Below, piece after piece: positions 28,430-35,861 of a stretch of 64,000 nucleotides of DNA. The notes below the pieces were generated by a model. It was not told the origin of the DNA. It saw only the letters and a program-made list of their open reading frames with translations, and did not search any database. Source of the stretch: an uncultured Oscillospiraceae bacterium (GTDB taxonomy: Bacteria > Bacillota > Clostridia > UMGS1883). A program made the translations under genes and the position numbers. The DNA is taken from the NCBI GenBank assembly GCA_964572985.1, contig CAZNIC010000005.1:6777-70776 (forward strand), given 5' to 3'. How positions within the stretch are numbered: position 1 is the first letter of the stretch; the number at the start of each line of letters is the position of its first letter.

Positions 28430-28810
28430 TTACTCTTCAATATGATTTTTTGCCCATACTGCTGCCGCTAATGCCGCAATACTAACGCATAACAAAAGTA
28501 TTTCTGCTGCACAAAACACTTTTAATGAAACAGGTAAAATAAGAAAGACTATAGTAATTAAAACGGTCAATATAAGATAAATCAAAGAAATAGTCGTAAA
28601 AAGTCCGTTTTGCATAACGTTTTCCGCCTTATCAAGTGCAGACAAACACAAAGATGAAAACAAAAGAGTATATGGTATAAATACAAATATTCCTGCAAAC
28701 AGCAGTTTCTCTGAGACATTTTCAACAAGAAGTGCTGCTACAACAATAACACCTATCATAATTACACAATATGAAATAAGAATAGGTAAAACTTTTTTTA
28801 AATCAAACAT
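28430..28810 (-). CDS. Small 4-TM membrane protein (last gene of the TIR/SPFH operon)
   Basis: 126 aa, almost entirely hydrophobic helices. It starts 12 nt after the stop of the SPFH gene. Confidence 0.65.
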   Translation of the reverse strand: MFDLKKVLPILISYCVIMIGVIVVAALLVENVSEKLLFAGIFVFIPYTLLFSSLCLSALDKAENVMQNGLFTTISLIYLILTVLITIVFLILPVSLKVFCAAEILLLCVSIAALAAAVWAKNHIEE

Positions 28811-28822
28811 TTTTATAACTCC

Positions 28823-30085
28823 TTACACCTTGATTCCGCACTCAAAGCAGAACTTTGCGCCCTCAACCAACAAGCTGCCGCAATTTATACAACGAACTGC
28901 CTGCTTTGCTCCGCATTCAAAGCAGAACTTTGCACCTCGAGGCAACTTTGCACCACAACTACAAATGACTCCCTCCACTGCCTCTTCTACGACGGGGTTC
29001 GCTACAGTTTCTGTCGGTGGTGTGTGTGCACTTTCCATAGTCTGCGTTGCAGGCTCAACCACATGTTGGACTGTAGACTGAATCGGTTGCGGTGCTGCGG
29101 CAGAATTCATGGCTCCACCTACCATATTTCCTACAACACCACCCATTGTCCCGCCAATTCCTGCTATCATGCCCATGCCAATTCCAAGATTTGCGAACTG
29201 ACCTGAACTCTCGTTTCCGGCAACCTTTTCCGCAACATCAAAGCTTCTTTCATCCTGATATGTATAGCCCTCAAGTCTACGTTTTTCAGCAAGAGACTGA
29301 GCTTCCATAATACGCATCTGCGATTCAGTTTGCTGTCTTATAAGGCTTACCTGCTGCTGTGTCTGCTCTTCAAAGATGTCAGTATATCTACGAGAGGTTA
29401 TTTCCTTAAGCTTACGATATGCAGGGTCGTCATCAGGTCTTACAACAGAGGCTATAAAGAACTGCTTTAAAGAAACACCGTATTCTGCAAAGTCATTAAC
29501 AAGAAGATTTTTTATAGCTTCCGATAAAATATCCAGCTGACTGTCAATTTCAAAAATATTCAGCTGTTGTTCTTTAATTGTTCTCGCAAGATATGATTTC
29601 ACACGACTCATCAAAAGAACTCTAAAGTATTTTATTAATCCTTCAGGTGAAATTGAAGTTTCTGTACCGACCAGTCTTACCAAAAAGCCTGCTGCATCTG
29701 CAATTTGAAGACTCATTTCACCGCTTGCGCCTATTTCCATAGGAAAATTATATGTAGGTTCAATAAATTGCACCTTACTATCTGTTCCCCATTTTAAAGC
29801 CATTTTTTCCACCTTATTTACAAAGTAAACTTCACAATGAAATGTACTTTCGCCTCCGGTGGGTATATTCATCAGCTTTCTTAACAAAGGGATATTTTCT
29901 GTTTTTAAAACATAACGACCTGCCGTGAAGACATCTGCTATCTGCCCGTTTTTCAAGAATATTGCTTCCTGAGATTCGTGTACAATAAGAGTTGATGATG
30001 TGTTAAAATCCTCCGCAGGATGCTTCCATACCAGAGTGTTATTATCCCCCTCATACTTAATTACTTCTAAAAACTTCATTTTCAA
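28823..30085 (-). CDS. YdjI-like SPFH/band-7 superfamily protein with a Gly/Met-rich linker and a C-terminal double zinc ribbon
   Basis: 420 aa. The N-terminal 230 aa resemble my recollection of the COG4260/YdjI family (IVHESQEAIFLKNGQIADVF..., EVYFVNKVEKMALKWGT). The linker reads GIGMGMIAGIGGTMGGVVGNMVGG. The C-terminus reads CSCGAKLPRGAKFCFECGAKQ...CINCGSLLVEGAKFCFECG. Confidence 0.75.
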   Translation of the reverse strand: MKMKFLEVIKYEGDNNTLVWKHPAEDFNTSSTLIVHESQEAIFLKNGQIADVFTAGRYVLKTENIPLLRKLMNIPTGGESTFHCEVYFVNKVEKMALKWGTDSKVQFIEPTYNFPMEIGASGEMSLQIADAAGFLVRLVGTETSISPEGLIKYFRVLLMSRVKSYLARTIKEQQLNIFEIDSQLDILSEAIKNLLVNDFAEYGVSLKQFFIASVVRPDDDPAYRKLKEITSRRYTDIFEEQTQQQVSLIRQQTESQMRIMEAQSLAEKRRLEGYTYQDERSFDVAEKVAGNESSGQFANLGIGMGMIAGIGGTMGGVVGNMVGGAMNSAAAPQPIQSTVQHVVEPATQTMESAHTPPTETVANPVVEEAVEGVICSCGAKLPRGAKFCFECGAKQAVRCINCGSLLVEGAKFCFECGIKV

Positions 30086-30090
30086 ACTCC

Positions 30091-32037
30091 TTATCTATAG
30101 AAATATGTATCAAACTGTTCCACTATAGGTGTCATTGTTTTATCAACCGTACTTCCCAATATCTCATACTTTTCTTTAAGTTCATATACAATATCTTCAA
30201 TACAAGGTTTAACCACATTAGCATAATGCTCATTTCTTTTCACGCCGGCATTTTTTGCTTCACGTCTTATTCCAATATCTCTTAACACCACAACAATCGC
30301 CGACGCACTTGCTATAATAAATAAGATTACAGCTATAATATTTCCGTCAAGCAGTTCAAACACCATAACCGGAATTAATGCGCCAAGAACAACCAAAACA
30401 ACAAAACCTATACATCCGAATGTAATATCCGCGATTTCAAATCTGCTGTTGATAAGCACATACAAAGCTATTGACCATACAAAAGGCATCAGACCACTAA
30501 CATCAACAAAGGGCATCAGCAGTGCAGAAACCAGCAAAATCAGAGCACATACTATATCCTTTTTTTCGCCAAACAAACCTATGCCTTTCTTGCTTTTTTC
30601 ATCAAGCTCAATAAGCTTTTGATATTGTTCTGCATAATTTTGTTTTAGTTTGCCGACCAGATATTTTTCTCCGTCTCTTACATTATGTTGAAACTCTTTT
30701 TGCGTATTTTTATATTCCTGTTTGTGTTGTTGCGCTCTTCGTGCTTTTTCTGCCAACACCTCACTGTCCATATAGCTGCCGAGCGAATAAAAGTGTTGAA
30801 TCGCCTGTTCATAGTCTCCCTGTTCCAAGCACTCCTGTCCTTGTTTGTAAATTCGCTTGTTCAGGGTCATCTGCTCAAACGAATTCAACAAATTTTTCGT
30901 CTCTTCATCGGCAAACTGTTTTGCTCTTTTAAACATCAAGTTGTTTTCCCATACAATGTCAATGGAAAGGTCGTTAAGATTTCGTGCTTCATTATCTGCC
31001 AGCAACGCATAGAAATGTGCCTTTCCGTTTTCCGGCTGTACGTCTAACAGCTTGCTTATTCTGGTCTTAGCCCGAATAAAATTACGTTCCTTTAAATCCC
31101 GCTCAATTTCATCTATAGGATCAATATTATCTACCGGATGCGCTTTTTTTCCTACAACTTTCAATATACCGGCTATCAAATCCTGCATCGCACCGGGCTT
31201 GCTCCAATCTATTGCCGAGGTGTACGGGATTTCCCTGGGCAATCGGTCCTTGTCCATTCCGATACATATCGGATATAATTGTTTTCGTTTGTCCTTTTCC
31301 ATTATTGCCAAATATCGTTTCCACTCATTTTTTACCCAACGGGCATTGATATGATGTGGTTCGTCTGCGATAAGAAGCATTATTTTTGCAGAGTTAAGTG
31401 CCGCATAAATACGTGGCTCGTAGTCTTTTCCCAACATGTTTTCAAGAGTCACTCTTGAAAAGAACACCTTCACGCCTTCTTTTTCCAGTTGCGTATATAT
31501 TTCTTGCGCCTCAATACTGCCTCTTGTTCTCTCCCCATTATCTTTTTCAGCTTTGAAGCATATGAACACATCGTACGGCTTTTCTTTTCTTGATATTTCT
31601 AAAAATTTTTGTTGGATATCGGCAATTCTCATTGCCTCTTTACGATAAATATCCCTCTGATATTCATCTGCATATTTTAACGCATTAAGATAGTCTGAAT
31701 CATCTAATACGTTTTTGTCACTCAATCTGCTGCATGTAGGCAAATATTCTCCTTTTCGCACATCCTTCTCGTACTCAATACCATATCTGCACAGCATCAA
31801 ATTCCAGTAGGCCTCTGCTTCGCTGCTATCTTCCGCTATGATTTGTTGATATGCCAAGTATGCCTCGTCAAATGAACCCATTTGCCTAAAAGTATTTCCT
31901 CGATTGTAAAAATACGCTTTCTTGTCATCATCAATTTTCGGCAGTGTTACCTCGCAACCGCAGCTATCACAGATGCCATGAGTTTCACCGCTTATCTGAA
32001 TACTGCCCCCGCAAATTTTACATTTTAATATTGTCAT
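30091..32037 (-). CDS. Zn-ribbon / TPR-like / TIR-domain / C-terminal 4-TM protein (paralog B)
   Basis: 648 aa. CxxC...CxxC at aa 6-26. TIR-like core at aa ~154-297 (YDVFICFKAEKD...VFFSRVTL...SAKIMLLIADEPHHINARWVKNEWKRY). Hydrophobic helices at aa ~495-600. Confidence 0.75.
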   Translation of the reverse strand: MTILKCKICGGSIQISGETHGICDSCGCEVTLPKIDDDKKAYFYNRGNTFRQMGSFDEAYLAYQQIIAEDSSEAEAYWNLMLCRYGIEYEKDVRKGEYLPTCSRLSDKNVLDDSDYLNALKYADEYQRDIYRKEAMRIADIQQKFLEISRKEKPYDVFICFKAEKDNGERTRGSIEAQEIYTQLEKEGVKVFFSRVTLENMLGKDYEPRIYAALNSAKIMLLIADEPHHINARWVKNEWKRYLAIMEKDKRKQLYPICIGMDKDRLPREIPYTSAIDWSKPGAMQDLIAGILKVVGKKAHPVDNIDPIDEIERDLKERNFIRAKTRISKLLDVQPENGKAHFYALLADNEARNLNDLSIDIVWENNLMFKRAKQFADEETKNLLNSFEQMTLNKRIYKQGQECLEQGDYEQAIQHFYSLGSYMDSEVLAEKARRAQQHKQEYKNTQKEFQHNVRDGEKYLVGKLKQNYAEQYQKLIELDEKSKKGIGLFGEKKDIVCALILLVSALLMPFVDVSGLMPFVWSIALYVLINSRFEIADITFGCIGFVVLVVLGALIPVMVFELLDGNIIAVILFIIASASAIVVVLRDIGIRREAKNAGVKRNEHYANVVKPCIEDIVYELKEKYEILGSTVDKTMTPIVEQFDTYFYR

Positions 32038-32055
32038 ATTATTACCACCTTTTTA

Positions 32056-34053
32056 CTAATTTGCTTTTTCAATATCCAATGTCATCTTCCATGTATCCCA
32101 GGGTTTCTTTTCTTCTGTTCCGATTAAATCGCTATACTCTGTCTGTAATTTTTCTTTTACTTTTGCGCTTAACGGAGCAATAACTTTTTTCTGATACCCC
32201 GCACATTTCTTTGCGGCAGCTCTCCATCTTTTTCCTCTGATTGTCGAACTGATGATATTAAACAGGCAAATCAATGTGTGTATCAGCATCAAAAGAAAAA
32301 CAATGATTGCCACAACGCTCCTTAAAGGTTGTATAATATAAATAAAAGCAAGTATCAGTCCCGGAACTCCCGCAACAAAAGCGCTTACTACAATTTGCAG
32401 AATAATGCCAAAAAAACTTTCGTTGTACATTTCTGTTATATCCGCATATTCGTTGCTCATCCACGCCAAGGACGCTACAAGTCCTCCGCAGAAAATAAAG
32501 GGACTTAACAAGTAGATTATCGTCAGCGGCAACGTCATATTGTCGGGCAAATCCAGATTCATTAAATCTCTGCCGAACAATACACTGCCCAATATTATCG
32601 AATAATAGAGCCCGCTTAAAAAAACTGTTATCATTGCAATTACAGGCATTTTCAAACAACAAATACCCTTTGTGCCGGCTTCTTTTGAATATTCCGCATA
32701 CAAATCCGTATACTCTTTGTATTCTTTAGGATATGTACTTGCAATTTCTTCCCTGAGATATTTTGTAGAATTTTTACAAATCTCTATGTAATTTTTTTTC
32801 GCCTGAGCTTTTTCTGTGTATTCCAGCTGGCAACGAATTTTGCTTTCATATTTTTTCAGATATTCAAGCAAAATGTTACGAACAGCATTTCCACCATATT
32901 CTGCCAACATTTTAAAGCTCATATCGTTTACAAGCGCATTTTCATCAACAGTTTTCTTGAAAATATCATCCAATGATTTCAAATCATACTTTAGAAGCAA
33001 CATTTTAATATGAATTTTTTCCTCATTCATATATTCATGCACATAACTTTCAAGCAGTGCCAAGGCGTCCTCTTTTTTCCCGTCTTCCAAATATTGATCC
33101 GCTCTCATCATCAGCAAATCAATATTGCTTCCAATCGTTCCTAACGCCTTTCCTGTTTGATTTTTACCCAAATGACTAAGTATGTTTTCAGTCAAAGTTT
33201 CAATCGCACCCGGGTTATTTAATTCAATCGCCTGAATTCCTCGCGGGATTTCCGCAGGCAATTCCTTTGGTGAAACATCAACACATACTGGAATAAAAAG
33301 CTTTCCGGGATCTTCGTCGCACATTGACAAGTATCTTTTCCACTCACTTTTGACCCAGGGAGAATTTATGTTTCCACTCTCATCAGCAATCACCAACATT
33401 ATCTTTGCTGATTGCAGTGCCGCAAAAACAAGTGGTTCATATTCATCAGAGGAAGGCTTTGGTTCTACTCTTGAAAAAAACGCATGTACTCCCTCGCATT
33501 GCAGTCGATTATATATTCCCTGTGCACTTGCGTGGGCTCTTGATGTTTTTTGTGCACTGAATTTATTATTACAGCATATGAACACATCGCAAGGACCGCC
33601 TCGGTTTAATGCATCCATACTCTTTTCCCTAATATATTCAATTTTATCTGCTTCGGCACGATACAATTCTTTATTATAATAGTCGGCATTATCCACTGCG
33701 GCAAGGTAATCTATATCATCATAAATAGGTTTATTGTTTACTTTGCAGCAGGTCGGAATATATTCTCCATTTTCAACATCTAATACGTATTCAACCCCAT
33801 ATCTACACAGCATCAAACACCAATGCGCCTCTGCATCCTCCCTGTCCATTGCGATAAGATGTTCATAGGCAGACTCTGCTTTTTGATAGTTTCCTAACAT
33901 TCTGAAGTGATTTGCTCTATTATACATTTCCACTCTTTCATTGTCAGTTTTTTTCGGCAGACTTATCTCTCCTCCACAGCTGTCACATACGCCATGAGTT
34001 CCCCCTACAATCCGGATATTGCCTCCGCACATTCTGCATTTTAATATTGTCAT
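32056..34053 (-). CDS. Zn-ribbon / TPR-like / TIR-domain / C-terminal multi-TM protein (paralog A)
   Basis: 665 aa with the same architecture as paralog B. TIR-like core at aa ~154-296 (CDVFICCNNKF...AFFSRVEP...SAKIMLVIADESGNINSPWVKSEWKRY). The N-termini of the two paralogs are nearly identical (MTILKC[KR][IM]CGG). Confidence 0.75.
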   Translation of the reverse strand: MTILKCRMCGGNIRIVGGTHGVCDSCGGEISLPKKTDNERVEMYNRANHFRMLGNYQKAESAYEHLIAMDREDAEAHWCLMLCRYGVEYVLDVENGEYIPTCCKVNNKPIYDDIDYLAAVDNADYYNKELYRAEADKIEYIREKSMDALNRGGPCDVFICCNNKFSAQKTSRAHASAQGIYNRLQCEGVHAFFSRVEPKPSSDEYEPLVFAALQSAKIMLVIADESGNINSPWVKSEWKRYLSMCDEDPGKLFIPVCVDVSPKELPAEIPRGIQAIELNNPGAIETLTENILSHLGKNQTGKALGTIGSNIDLLMMRADQYLEDGKKEDALALLESYVHEYMNEEKIHIKMLLLKYDLKSLDDIFKKTVDENALVNDMSFKMLAEYGGNAVRNILLEYLKKYESKIRCQLEYTEKAQAKKNYIEICKNSTKYLREEIASTYPKEYKEYTDLYAEYSKEAGTKGICCLKMPVIAMITVFLSGLYYSIILGSVLFGRDLMNLDLPDNMTLPLTIIYLLSPFIFCGGLVASLAWMSNEYADITEMYNESFFGIILQIVVSAFVAGVPGLILAFIYIIQPLRSVVAIIVFLLMLIHTLICLFNIISSTIRGKRWRAAAKKCAGYQKKVIAPLSAKVKEKLQTEYSDLIGTEEKKPWDTWKMTLDIEKAN

Positions 34054-34079
34054 TCTTTCTTCTCTCCTAATACAGTATT

Positions 34080-34134
34080 GTTTGATTTTGATATATTCAC
34101 AAATTAATGCTTTACAAACACATCAAAATCAAAC
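34080..34134. promoter_or_regulatory. 13-bp perfect inverted repeat bracketing a weak promoter-like sequence upstream of TIR paralog A
   Basis: GTTTGATTTTGAT (34080-34092) and ATCAAAATCAAAC (34122-34134), 29 nt apart. Between them, on the minus strand, is TTGTAA-16-TATATC. RBS GGAGAG lies at about 34063-34068. Confidence 0.4.
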
Positions 34135-34139
34135 ATGTT

Positions 34140-34178
34140 TTAAAAAGATAGTGTGACATAAAACGTCACACTATCTTT
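34140..34178 (-). terminator. Terminator/attenuator-like hairpin between the first membrane-protein gene and TIR paralog A
   Basis: 14-bp stem AAAGATAGTGTGAC (34144-34157) / GTCACACTATCTTT (34165-34178). On the minus strand it is followed by TTAAAAC. It begins 8 nt after the stop at 34186. Confidence 0.5.
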
Positions 34179-34185
34179 ACAACCG

Positions 34186-34683
34186 TTATTTTGTCACTTT
34201 TATATAAGACTTTCTGTCCGCGGAAGCTTCGCCAACGTATTCACCGTTTGCGTTATATACCTTTGTGCCGTCAATATATAATATTTCTCCGTTTTCACCA
34301 ACAACTTCAGTTGGGCTCATTAACGTCCAAACTGCACCGATAAAGAATACCGCAATCTTGAATGTAATACCCAATCCAGATATAAGTATAGATATAAACA
34401 ACCTGCTCTTTAAAAAATCAGGACATTTACGATATATATTCCACCAGCAGAATGCACTTATAGCAGCTACTATTAAAGCACCCAACGCGGACGCAAACTC
34501 ACCACGGATTATACATGCTACTGTAGCAGCTACCCCCACAGGCAGACAGAGACACAAATATGCACTGACGCGTCCGTATACGCCAAAAGCTTTAAAAAGA
34601 CCGGTTGTCTTGCTTTCTTTAAATGCGCAGATTATTCCAAGAATCAACAAAACCAGTGCTGCAACAATCATTACGCCTTCCAT
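34186..34683 (-). CDS. Small membrane protein (4 TM plus a ~45-aa soluble tail); first gene downstream of the invertible segment
   Basis: Start moved to MEGVMIVAALV (34683), which has a GGAGG RBS at 34692-34696. The longer track ORF (to 34737) would run through inverted-repeat site IR-L. Confidence 0.65.
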   Translation of the reverse strand: MEGVMIVAALVLLILGIICAFKESKTTGLFKAFGVYGRVSAYLCLCLPVGVAATVACIIRGEFASALGALIVAAISAFCWWNIYRKCPDFLKSRLFISILISGLGITFKIAVFFIGAVWTLMSPTEVVGENGEILYIDGTKVYNANGEYVGEASADRKSYIKVTK

Positions 34684-34709
34684 TTTTATTCCTCCTTCCC
34701 TGATAATAC

Positions 34710-34732
34710 ACCACATAATAACAATTATGTGG
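34710..34732. repeat. IR-L: lox-like recombination-site candidate ACCACATAATAACAATTATGTGG
   Basis: It is the exact reverse complement of 34939-34961. It has 9-bp palindromic arms CCACATAAT/ATTATGTGG around an asymmetric AACA core. Confidence 0.8.
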
Positions 34733-34876
34733 TGCATTTAACTTACCAAATAATATTTTAATAACAGCGTATCTGTATTATGACACAACAAAAAAGACCA
34801 ATGTGCCTAAACTTTTTCATTGGTCCTTTTGTTGTACTTCTCTTTCATCAAAAACCACTTATATTGTTTGAAATTA

Positions 34877-34904
34877 TTGACATTTTGATATTTTATGCTA
34901 TAAT
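34877..34904 (+). promoter_or_regulatory. Consensus sigma-A type promoter inside the IR-flanked segment (currently facing away from the operon)
   Basis: TTGACA (34877-34882), 16-nt spacer, extended -10 TGcTATAAT (34896-34904). Confidence 0.7.
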
Positions 34905-34938
34905 TATTACCAATGGGATATATGTATTTCCCAAAGTG

Positions 34939-34961
34939 CCACATAATTGTTATTATGTGGT
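34939..34961. repeat. IR-R: lox-like recombination-site candidate CCACATAATTGTTATTATGTGGT
   Basis: It is the exact reverse complement of IR-L, with core TGTT. It lies 10 nt downstream of the recombinase stop codon and is followed by TCTTTTTTATTTT. Confidence 0.8.
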
Positions 34962-34971
34962 CTTTTTTATT

Positions 34972-35811
34972 TTAACACCTTAGCAATCCCAGCTTCTGTA
35001 TTTGGTTGCGGTGAATTTCGCCGCTTTCCATTGTATATATTCGGGTTGTATTTACATTTGAGTGACCTAAAATATCTGCAAGCCTTACTACATCCCTTTG
35101 AATGGAATAATACGTTCTTGCAAACAAATGTCTCAAATTGTGCGGAAACACCTTTTTCTCTGATACGCCTGCTTTCTTACAGAGTTTTTTCATATCTTTC
35201 CATATATTTGAACGGTCAAGCGGATTTCCGTTTTTGCTCACAAAAACAGGTCCTTTCTTAATCTTCTCTTTTTTTATAAAGTTTTTCAGCATCTTACACA
35301 ACATTACAGGCAATATAACTACCCTCAACTTCCCTTTGCAGTTAATTGTTGCCTGCCCTCTTTCCACAGCCTCTACCGTAATACATTTCAATTCCGATAC
35401 TCGTATCCCGGTAGAGCATATTGTCTGCATCAAAAAGAAAAGCTTTCTGTTTTTCTTTTTCTTTGCTGTGTCAATAAGCATTTCATACTCCTTTTTTGTA
35501 AGCTCTTTTTCTTGATTTATAAATATCTGTTTTTGAATTTTTACAAATTTTACTTTTAAGTTATTCCACCCTTTAAATAAAAAAAACGAGTTTATCGAAG
35601 AGAGCATTGAATTCACACTAACGGGAGCATATTGTTCAATTAATAAATTTTTGTATTCAAGCATAACCTCTTTATCAATTATTTTACCCTTGCTATATTC
35701 CGCAAATGCCTTAACATCCCGAATATATTTATCAGTAGTTGCTTTTGATTTTTCCTCCGCTATAAGAAACGTTTTAAATTCTTTTATCATGTCATCTGTA
35801 ATTTCTCTCAT
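34972..35811 (-). CDS. Tyrosine-type site-specific recombinase (short, Xer/invertase-like)
   Basis: About 279 aa. Catalytic signature: STGIRVSEL (Arg), HNLRHLF (His-x-x-Arg) and LGHSNVNTTRIY (His ... Tyr). It has an N-terminal SAM-like core-binding domain and no large arm-binding domain. The ATG at 35811 is preferred over the TTG at 35820. Confidence 0.88.
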   Translation of the reverse strand: MREITDDMIKEFKTFLIAEEKSKATTDKYIRDVKAFAEYSKGKIIDKEVMLEYKNLLIEQYAPVSVNSMLSSINSFFLFKGWNNLKVKFVKIQKQIFINQEKELTKKEYEMLIDTAKKKKNRKLFFLMQTICSTGIRVSELKCITVEAVERGQATINCKGKLRVVILPVMLCKMLKNFIKKEKIKKGPVFVSKNGNPLDRSNIWKDMKKLCKKAGVSEKKVFPHNLRHLFARTYYSIQRDVVRLADILGHSNVNTTRIYTMESGEIHRNQIQKLGLLRC

Positions 35812-35861
35812 ATATGTCAAATCCTTTCCGACAATTTTTTCATAATCATTTTATCACCAAT

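Follow-up and report, generated by a model that had tools for sequence, protein, structure and literature searches.

Positions 34710–34961 of the window, a 64,000-nt stretch of contig CAZNIC010000005.1 from an uncultured Oscillospiraceae bacterium, very probably form an invertible promoter (inverton) driven by a tyrosine recombinase and assembled in its OFF orientation. Two inverted core sites bound a short segment with a consensus promoter. The gene of the presumed recombinase adjoins one site, and a minus-strand operon for membrane, TIR and SPFH proteins, called the cargo below, begins beyond the other. Sites and recombinases of the same family occur at many loci in gut Clostridia, and at some of these both orientations of the segment were found between matching flanks. 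With much the same confidence, we regard the element as functional or as having been so recently.

Core sites, recombinase and inversion in sister loci

An earlier note, made from this sequence, had proposed that the two repeats are exact reverse complements with the build of tyrosine-recombinase core sites. Reading of the sequence and a repeat finder confirmed the first point. The cargo-side site IR-L (ACCACATAATAACAATTATGTGG, 34710–34732) and the recombinase-side site IR-R (34939–34961) are perfect reverse complements of 23 nt each and can be extended to 28 nt with 93% complementarity, the arms being 206 nt apart. Based on repeat and motif searches and, for IR-R, the family consensus, they share their arms and differ in their centres, being (A)CCACATAAT-AACA-ATTATGTGG in IR-L and CCACATAAT-TGTT-ATTATGTGG(T) in IR-R. 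The pattern CCACATAATNNNNATTATGTGG matched exactly twice in the 64-kb window against 0.02 matches expected, and none of 100 shuffles gave two or more. The enclosed segment (34733–34938) is 206 bp long, and its homologues in sister loci lie in both orientations. The locus has the parts by which an inverton is recognized, namely inverted repeats bounding a short segment, an internal promoter facing the regulated genes in one orientation only, and an intact adjoining gene for a site-specific recombinase predicted to be able to act on the repeats. Each site likewise has inverted arms, an asymmetric centre that sets its polarity and a partner with the matching centre.

The recombinase gene (34972–35811, minus strand) ends 10 nt from IR-R and encodes a two-domain, Xer-like protein of 279 aa, the presumed invertase, which matches Pfam Phage_integrase (E=1e-28). 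All six catalytic residues (R-K-HxxR-H-Y) are present in alignments to XerD (1a0p) and XerA (5hxy). Together with the homologues that adjoin sites across the family, this bears out the earlier assignment of an adjoining tyrosine recombinase. The protein is most similar to XerA-, XerD- and XerC-like proteins, yet it falls below all Xer equivalog cut-offs of NCBIfam (XerA, 142 against 220; XerD, 121 against 330; XerC, 105 against 335), and by sequence its likeness to Xer seems limited to the fold and the catalytic residues. Nor does it belong to the FimB/FimE family, since it reached 35 and 27 bits with the two tyrosine-type DNA invertase models, whose cut-offs are 221 and 222. The protein family is very large: a search gave over 8000 homologues, and many of these have exactly 279 aa and are about 70% identical.

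Scans for the arms with any centre returned at least 120 loci from metagenome contigs and at least 119 from a set with one genome per species. At least 240 loci carry these arms, and almost all of the named sources are gut or rumen Clostridia. Among the matches listed, the sources include Oscillospiraceae, Lachnospiraceae, Faecousia, [Clostridium] symbiosum ATCC 14940 and Lacrimispora, and several genomes have more than one locus. The counts given below for the family refer to the loci listed, which are designated by L numbers. The family signature is a pair of 22–23-bp sites, CCACATAAT-NNNN-ATTATGTGG. Among 240 loci there are 176 inverted site pairs with a median inner segment of 232 nt. The two centres are reverse-complementary in all 176 pairs, and 57 different centres occur, none of them palindromic. 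This first pairing criterion took in the centre itself; when the pairing was repeated with the arms alone, 162 pairs were reverse-complementary, 17 had identical centres and seven were of other kinds. All 17 identical-centre pairs are tandem duplicates 32–113 nt apart, and the seven others all lie in one unrelated contig. Conserved arms around free centres that are pair-matched and always asymmetric answer the needs of strand exchange by a tyrosine recombinase; an operator needs none of this. Furthermore, in 151 pairs a recombinase homologue (44–83% identical to that of the window) has its 3′ end no more than 250 nt from one site, the distance being tens of nucleotides or less in most of them.

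Inversion itself was observed in sister loci. The flanks and inner segments of all pairs were compared, and 23 groups of near-identical loci had been sampled more than once. Both orientations between matching flanks were found in four of these groups; the other 19 showed a single orientation, in few assemblies each. In the group with the centres AAAC/GTTT, L011, L016, L068 and L182 are opposite to L035, L055 and L092, and L016 and L092 have 100% identical flanks around a 177-nt segment that is 100% identical and inverted exactly at the repeats. The flanks of L189 and L220, whose recombinases are 66% identical to that of the window, are also identical, and their 251-nt segments match (99.6%) only as reverse complements. 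The two remaining groups are L041 with L096, and L007 with L082 and L115. In L041 and L096 the inner arm of the left site (…ATTATGTAG) becomes that of the right site (CTACATAAT…) after inversion, the outer arms staying fixed, so that the arm variant GTAG/CTAC switches sides with the segment. This places the crossover between the arms, in the centre. The exchange inside the centre, seen in these sister loci, and the reverse-complementary, non-palindromic centres of the family pairs uphold the comparison with tyrosine-recombinase core sites.

The earlier note had also predicted inversion from the opposite polarity of the two spacers. This was seen in the assemblies of the four sister groups, and the locus of the window itself was found only OFF. 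An exact-protein look-up of the recombinase returned two contigs only, both with the same locus in the OFF orientation and neither with a second orientation. The L001 contig is identical to the window and oriented alike, and SRR14307658 carries the exact locus. The assembled OFF junctions read ...AACAATTATGTGG|TGCATTTAACTTACC... and ...TTTCCCAAAGTG|CCACATAATTGTT...; inversion would give the ON junctions ...AACAATTATGTGG|CACTTTGGGAAATACATATATCCC... and ...GGTAAGTTAAATGCA|CCACATAATTGTT... (...AACAATTATGTGGCACTTTGGGAAATAC... and ...GGTAAGTTAAATGCACCACATAATTGTT...).

Several further observations concern the distribution of the sites. Tandem direct duplicates of core sites, 32–113 nt apart, occur in L183 (6311–6416, three copies), L175 (6607–6980, doubles at both ends), L099 (5231–5365) and L109 (2910–2974), and also in L090, L114, L184–L186, L190, L192, L204, L216, L228 and L234. 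They could allow inversions to nest, giving more than two states, or could lead to small deletions. Many metagenome contigs (L005, L021, L024, L025, L054 and L057, as well as L081, L086, L089, L104 and L105) have an end no more than about 100 nt from a core site. Such ends are to be expected if assemblers break where both orientations coexist in a sample, and some of them, especially those from soil, are probably chance matches. The same core sites were found in three metagenome-assembled genomes (L153, L214 and L221) labelled Gastranaerophilales or Gastranaerophilaceae, a non-photosynthetic cyanobacterial lineage; the recombinase of L153 is 68% identical to that of the window, and the occurrence reflects either cross-phylum transfer or a binning error. 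In a scan of viral contigs the motif was present in only two, and this near absence indicates that the module is not phage-borne.

Promoter, hairpins and the fate of transcripts

The segment carries the plus-strand promoter TTGACA-16-TGcTATAAT with an extended -10 (34877–34904), the sole 12/12 match between 33900 and 36100. It is conserved across an alignment of 57 diverged related segments, oriented by their adjacent recombinases, so that the earlier claim of a consensus promoter stands. Two blocks are conserved in this alignment, ...ATTGACAAA-N-TGnTATAAT and AGACCAATG-N-CATTGGTCT, and TTGAC and TAnAAT are invariant or nearly so. The -10 lies 34 nt from the repeat in the window and a median of 35 nt from it in the related segments. 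When the inverted sequence was constructed, the promoter moved to 34794–34767 on the minus strand, with the -35 starting at 34794 and facing the cargo. The post-inversion coordinates that had been proposed were reproduced in this way.

In the present orientation the promoter points to the recombinase. The same direction was found in 75 of the related loci, against 28 in which it faces the cargo and 48 in which it is unclear, so the window is in the commoner, OFF state. The earlier note had described the assembly as the OFF state of a phase-variable TIR locus. The direction of the promoter agrees with this; control of the TIR genes is what we infer from the cargo, as discussed below.

The promoter had also been said to point into the 3′ end of the recombinase gene. 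It does so, although the transcript probably stops before it gets far. A terminator scan flagged a hairpin at 34938–34961 followed by CTTTTTTATTTT. IR-R folds at -11.9 kcal/mol and is followed by CUUUUUUAUUUU, within a plus-strand T-run (34962–34973) between IR-R and the stop codon of the recombinase gene. On the recombinase strand this is an A-run just before the recombinase-side repeat, so that the opposite strand has the repeat hairpin and then a U-run. Across 128 non-redundant loci, at least five of the eight bases at this border are A in 82%, compared with about 10% at the other three borders. In the modelled ON state the same repeat hairpin is followed by UGUAUUAUCAGGGAAGGAGG, with no U-run, and the OFF and ON folds agree with a terminator model. 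Based on this conservation and folding, we infer that the A-run flank probably turns the recombinase-side site into a terminator for OFF-state transcripts. Given the IR-R hairpin and the U-run, such a transcript would stop after about 55–60 nt instead of running antisense through the recombinase gene. A further terminator-like hairpin, GCGGTGAATTTCGCCGC followed by TTTCC, lies in the 3′ end of the recombinase gene (35008–35024, plus strand), about 45 nt past IR-R; it could be a back-up stop for these transcripts or a chance occurrence.

Upstream of the promoter, the segment contains a conserved hairpin or palindrome (34785–34835), identified by folding and covariation. Its core is GACCAATG-N14-CATTGGTC at 34796–34825, with the arms GACCAATG at 34796–34803 and CATTGGTC at 34818–34825, extended by an A-run before and a T-run after the stem. 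It folds at -18.3 kcal/mol on the plus strand and at -20.6 kcal/mol on the minus strand. In the 57 segments the family form AGACCAATG-N14-16-CATTGGTCT is paired in 88.9% of cells, compensatory changes occur in all nine pairs, and the covariation score was reached by none of 500 shuffles. The stem is followed by a T-run in 33 segments and preceded by an A-run in 27; at least one of these is present in 45 of the 57, and the window has both. The loop is 13–18 nt long in 50 of the 57, with variable sequence. The element probably insulates transcription in both directions and keeps read-through from the recombinase gene away from the cargo; alternatively, it may be a protein-binding element of two half-sites. 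The covariation was at first considered as proof of an RNA terminator, and this was dropped because a protein-binding palindrome with symmetric half-sites would show the same covariation and the length of the loop is oddly constrained. The earlier suggestion of a hairpin that blocks read-through is therefore kept as to its presence, conservation and covariation, and a protein-binding site fits these data equally.

We propose the following mechanism for the switch. The Xer-like recombinase (34972–35811) would bind both core sites through their inverted arms of about 10 bp, the inner 4 nt (AACA/TGTT) setting the polarity. Strand exchange would take place inside the centre and, with the centres oppositely oriented, would invert the 206-bp segment. 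This segment presents a putative strong sigma-70-type promoter 34 nt from its end, and the hairpin upstream of it would insulate against read-through. In the OFF state the promoter would fire toward the recombinase, and the transcript would end some 55–60 nt on, at the IR-R hairpin and the U-run supplied by the flank. In the ON state the transcript would cross the identical repeat, behind which there is no U-run, and pass through the ribosome-binding site into the membrane protein gene that starts at 34683. If a hairpin at 34144–34178 is read through, it would continue into the two TIR genes, the SPFH/zinc-ribbon gene and the last membrane protein gene. The result would be a mixed population in which the majority of cells keep a probably costly cassette silent.

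Cargo genes, reach of the switch and alternative readings

The earlier note had described a membrane/TIR/SPFH operon, and Pfam and the sequence confirm its five minus-strand genes. The first (34186–34683, ATG at 34683) encodes a four-helix membrane protein of 165 aa; with its ribosome-binding site GGAGG (34691–34695, within GGAAGGAGG at 34691–34699) it occupies 34186–34699. It had no Pfam, NCBIfam or PADLOC match, and tblastn against all fetched loci found a homologue, the exact same protein, only in L001. The next gene (32056–34053) encodes a 665-aa protein with a zinc ribbon, TPR, TIR_2 and a C-terminal transmembrane segment. It is followed by a gene for a paralogue of the same zinc-ribbon/TPR/TIR_2/transmembrane build (30091–32037, 648 aa, 31% identical to the first TIR protein). 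The fourth gene (28823–30085) encodes a 420-aa SPFH protein (Band_7_1, Pfam E=3e-40) with a C-terminal double zinc ribbon, and the last one (28430–28810) a membrane protein of 126 aa.

The glutamate of the TIR WxxxE motif (SPWVKSEW in the first TIR protein, ARWVKNEW in the second) aligned, weakly, to the TIR domain of plant L6. The first TIR protein has more than 2500 homologues. Also, relatives of the N-terminal zinc-ribbon/TPR/TIR module number more than 2500 in gut Clostridia, and their C-terminal parts vary greatly (LRR, RCC1 and DUF6273 are among them); a TIR domain inside with a variable domain outside recalls a receptor-like architecture. None of the six cassette proteins matched PADLOC-DB v2, including Thoeris, at E<=0.01, and no NCBIfam model matched any cargo protein. 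The cassette, taken from 28430 to 35811, has a low GC content (34–40%) compared with 43–48% in the surrounding housekeeping genes (topoisomerase subunit A, a beta-eliminating lyase, a sugar-nucleotide enzyme, MurA and DnaE). Such a low-GC island between housekeeping genes suggests that the whole recombinase–switch–TIR/SPFH unit was acquired horizontally.

The cargo of related switches varies. In ten sampled loci the first cargo gene encodes a TetR regulator in seven (L189/L220, L088, L099, L112, L109, L051 and L232 among those sampled) and a YpsA/SLOG protein in three. The large downstream proteins that were sampled included surface proteins with SLH, fn3, dockerin, InlB-type repeat or collagen domains. 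In several of the TetR-first loci the TetR gene is followed by that of a very large, probably surface, protein. SPFH/zinc-ribbon homologues adjoin related switches in L033, L195, L203, L241 and L242. L241 (GCA_037193545.1) and L242/L243 have the order recombinase, switch, TIR, TIR, SPFH/zinc ribbon and a 125-aa gene, which in L241 and L242 holds the place of the 126-aa gene of the window; their TIR proteins are 33–34% identical to those of the window. In L203, from Oscillospiraceae, the order is recombinase, switch, SPFH/zinc ribbon, 233 aa, DUF4365 and TPR/TIR. By promoter direction, L241, L242/L243 and L203 are all OFF.

The switch certainly faces the first cargo gene. That it also gates the TIR and SPFH genes is, in our judgement, reasonably likely, given the sister cassettes and the operon layout. 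A narrower reading, in which the switch is real and governs the small membrane gene (34186–34683) alone, with the TIR/SPFH genes insulated and expressed or silenced separately, seems to us unlikely, though it is the strongest of the alternatives. It draws on two hairpins between the first gene and the first TIR gene (34079–34178, minus strand), which together fold at -46.4 kcal/mol (z = -7.6). The first (34144–34178), directly after gene 1, is terminator-like, with 11–14 pairs and then a U-run. The second (34079–34135) has about 25 pairs and ends just before the ribosome-binding site of the TIR gene. Moreover, gene 1 stands between switch and TIR genes in the window only and is missing from L241, L242 and L203, so it could be a later insertion with its own terminator. 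However, no convincing minus-strand promoter was found in front of the TIR genes (34186–34053); the best match, 9/12, lies upstream of the hairpin. The five genes are co-stranded with short gaps, and in L241 and L242/L243 the switch ends about 40 nt or less from the first TIR start codon (35 nt in L241 and similarly close in L242/L243). Internal hairpins are, besides, tolerated in many operons as attenuators or processing sites, and those at 34079–34178 could be an attenuator, a processing site or a terminator. Rfam gave no match for them or for the switch.

Several points weigh against an active inverton that controls the whole cassette. The locus is known in the OFF orientation only, and the other contig may derive from the same sample. 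Each core site is a near-perfect palindrome whose polarity rests on 4 nt, and similar palindromes have a different role in one contig, L009. The long, constant loop of the internal hairpin would fit a protein-binding palindrome as well as a terminator. With a strong U-run hairpin after gene 1, ON transcription into the TIR genes is a prediction from the layout. Finally, there are many TIR/SPFH cassettes without a switch, from which it follows that cassette and switch are separable modules.

Some of these points would suit a locked relic, an element with the anatomy of an inverton that has lost the ability to flip in this strain, for example because the recombinase is silent or inactive. The OFF orientation alone was seen, 19 of the 23 sister groups also showed one orientation in few assemblies, and on reading 35812–35858, ahead of the recombinase gene, no convincing promoter was noticed. 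We nevertheless consider a relic improbable. The 23-nt repeats are perfect, and the recombinase reading frame is intact with all catalytic residues; assemblies give the majority orientation only, so that uniform OFF is expected even for an active switch, and weak invertase promoters are common.

It is less probable still that the palindromes are operators or terminator hairpins, with no strand exchange and an unrelated recombinase. The sites are near-perfect palindromes that fold as RNA hairpins, and a TetR regulator is the first gene in many related loci. The contig L009 (Ga0222685_1000446, 10 kb) has 15 unpaired palindromes, CCACATAA-N6-TTATGTGG, located between small genes that lie on the same strand. 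These palindromes have unrelated centres, no paired arrangement and no recombinase homologue were detected, and the contig looks phage-like; on these grounds it was rejected as a switch locus. It shows that a palindrome alone is not diagnostic of a switch. However, operators would not be expected to have centres that vary between loci yet are pair-matched and never palindromic, segments inverted between matching flanks, an arm variant that changes sides together with the segment, or a recombinase gene next to one site, as in 151 of the pairs listed. The pair-matched centres, the sister inversions and the moving arm variant bring this model close to refutation, and we rejected it.

Least probable of all is a miniature transposable element, the 252-bp unit having inserted by chance where it now separates the recombinase gene from the operon: its short segment, perfect terminal inverted repeats and position in a low-GC island would suit one, but it was rejected because no target-site duplication was found on reading its flanks, it is single-copy in the 64-kb window, related units usually lie at the 3′ end of a homologous recombinase gene, and sister loci differ by inversion and not by presence or absence.

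Relation to known systems and meaning of the switch

The switch, read as an inverton as argued above, is of a well-known kind, a promoter inverted by a site-specific recombinase, and its class has probably been catalogued before; what is new is the TIR/SPFH cargo. Among published classes the nearest is probably 'inverton group 139', of which 32 of 33 members, in 17 strains, belong to the class Clostridia (PMC11892184). In that survey of the hCom2 community (PhaseFinderDC, Microbiome 2025), nearly all members have an adjacent tyrosine recombinase of 'invertase group 35', and their orientation shifts in culture, during passaging (PMC11892184). The member in Clostridium sp. D5 has 26-nt repeats and a 205-nt inner segment (3525576-3525601-3525807-3525832), and an Intestinimonas example has a spacing of about 240 nt (PMC11892184). 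Taxon, repeat and segment sizes and recombinase adjacency, the features compared, agree with the switch in the window, and the portions of the text at hand do not mention a TIR/SPFH cargo, a covarying centre, a flanking A-run or an internal hairpin (PMC11892184). A literature search for the repeat motif string returned chance matches only, such as primers.

The earlier note had likened the switch to those of Clostridioides difficile, and this holds as a likeness of kind, homology not being demonstrated. The RecV switches of C. difficile (cwpV, flagellar flgB and cmrRST) likewise involve inversion by a tyrosine recombinase in a Firmicute, a segment of about 150–200 bp with repeats of about 20 bp upstream of an operon, and ON and OFF subpopulations. 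There, one RecV acts in trans on several distant sites, and the cwpV and flgB switches act after initiation, via terminator formation or Rho, from a fixed upstream promoter. In contrast, a dedicated recombinase gene abuts each switch of the present family and the promoter lies inside the segment; the RecV repeat sequences are not known to be related to the sites described here.

The fimS element of E. coli with FimB/FimE resembles the window in having an invertible promoter, adjacent tyrosine recombinase gene(s) and an operon driven in one orientation only. It comprises 314 bp with 9-bp repeats, is served by two recombinases with directional bias and depends on IHF and Lrp. The window sites share with Xer/dif, loxP and FRT the inverted arms, a short asymmetric centre of strand exchange and an outcome decided by orientation. 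They differ in having four free central positions only and in being paired for inversion and not for chromosome dimer resolution. The capsule and other gut invertons of Bacteroides, reportedly described with PhaseFinder by Jiang et al. in 2019, also carry promoters and produce heterogeneity in surface or defence functions. They differ from the window in phylum, repeat motifs, recombinases and their sigma-AB-type promoter, and the Bacteroides master invertase Mpi is a serine recombinase acting globally. As for the cargo, it shares with Thoeris and other TIR anti-phage systems a TIR_2 domain in which the putative catalytic glutamate is kept. Unlike Thoeris, it has no ThsA-like partner and no PADLOC match, and its TIR proteins are anchored in the membrane, carry TPR and a zinc ribbon at the N-terminus, and have an SPFH/zinc-ribbon partner.

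Invertons are a main route to heritable, reversible cell-to-cell differences in gut bacteria; those of Bacteroides have been described well, those of Clostridia much less. The interest of the present switch lies in the quality of the comparative evidence, the compact, apparently portable design and the unusual cargo. The design combines one small recombinase with a 22-bp site, in which the 4 nt of the centre can be programmed freely, and with an insulated consensus promoter, and it appears to be autonomous. It could be reused as a genetic tool in Firmicutes, and the 57 centre variants give an idea of the number of switches that a single genome might carry without cross-talk. The annotation libraries searched contain no match for the conserved cassette, in which two or three membrane TIR proteins go with an SPFH/zinc-ribbon protein, and its function could be approached experimentally through ON- and OFF-locked strains.

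Being kept OFF behind a switch would suggest that the cassette comes at a cost and is of use under certain conditions, which would suit an immune or suicide module; that it is in fact a defence or suicide system we put forward only tentatively. Our broadest proposal is equally tentative. The recombinase and the switch may form a portable plug-in module, consisting of the invertase gene, the A-run flank, a 22-bp core site that also serves as a terminator dependent on that flank, the insulating hairpin, the consensus promoter and the second core site. On this proposal the module would be placed on hundreds of operons of gut Clostridia and, here and in at least three other genomes, would gate an as yet undescribed, membrane-anchored cassette of several TIR proteins and an SPFH/zinc-ribbon protein, bet-hedged and NAD-consuming, for conflict or abortive infection. 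If this is true, the cassette would be kept OFF in most cells and would be the first example of a TIR-based system controlled by DNA inversion.

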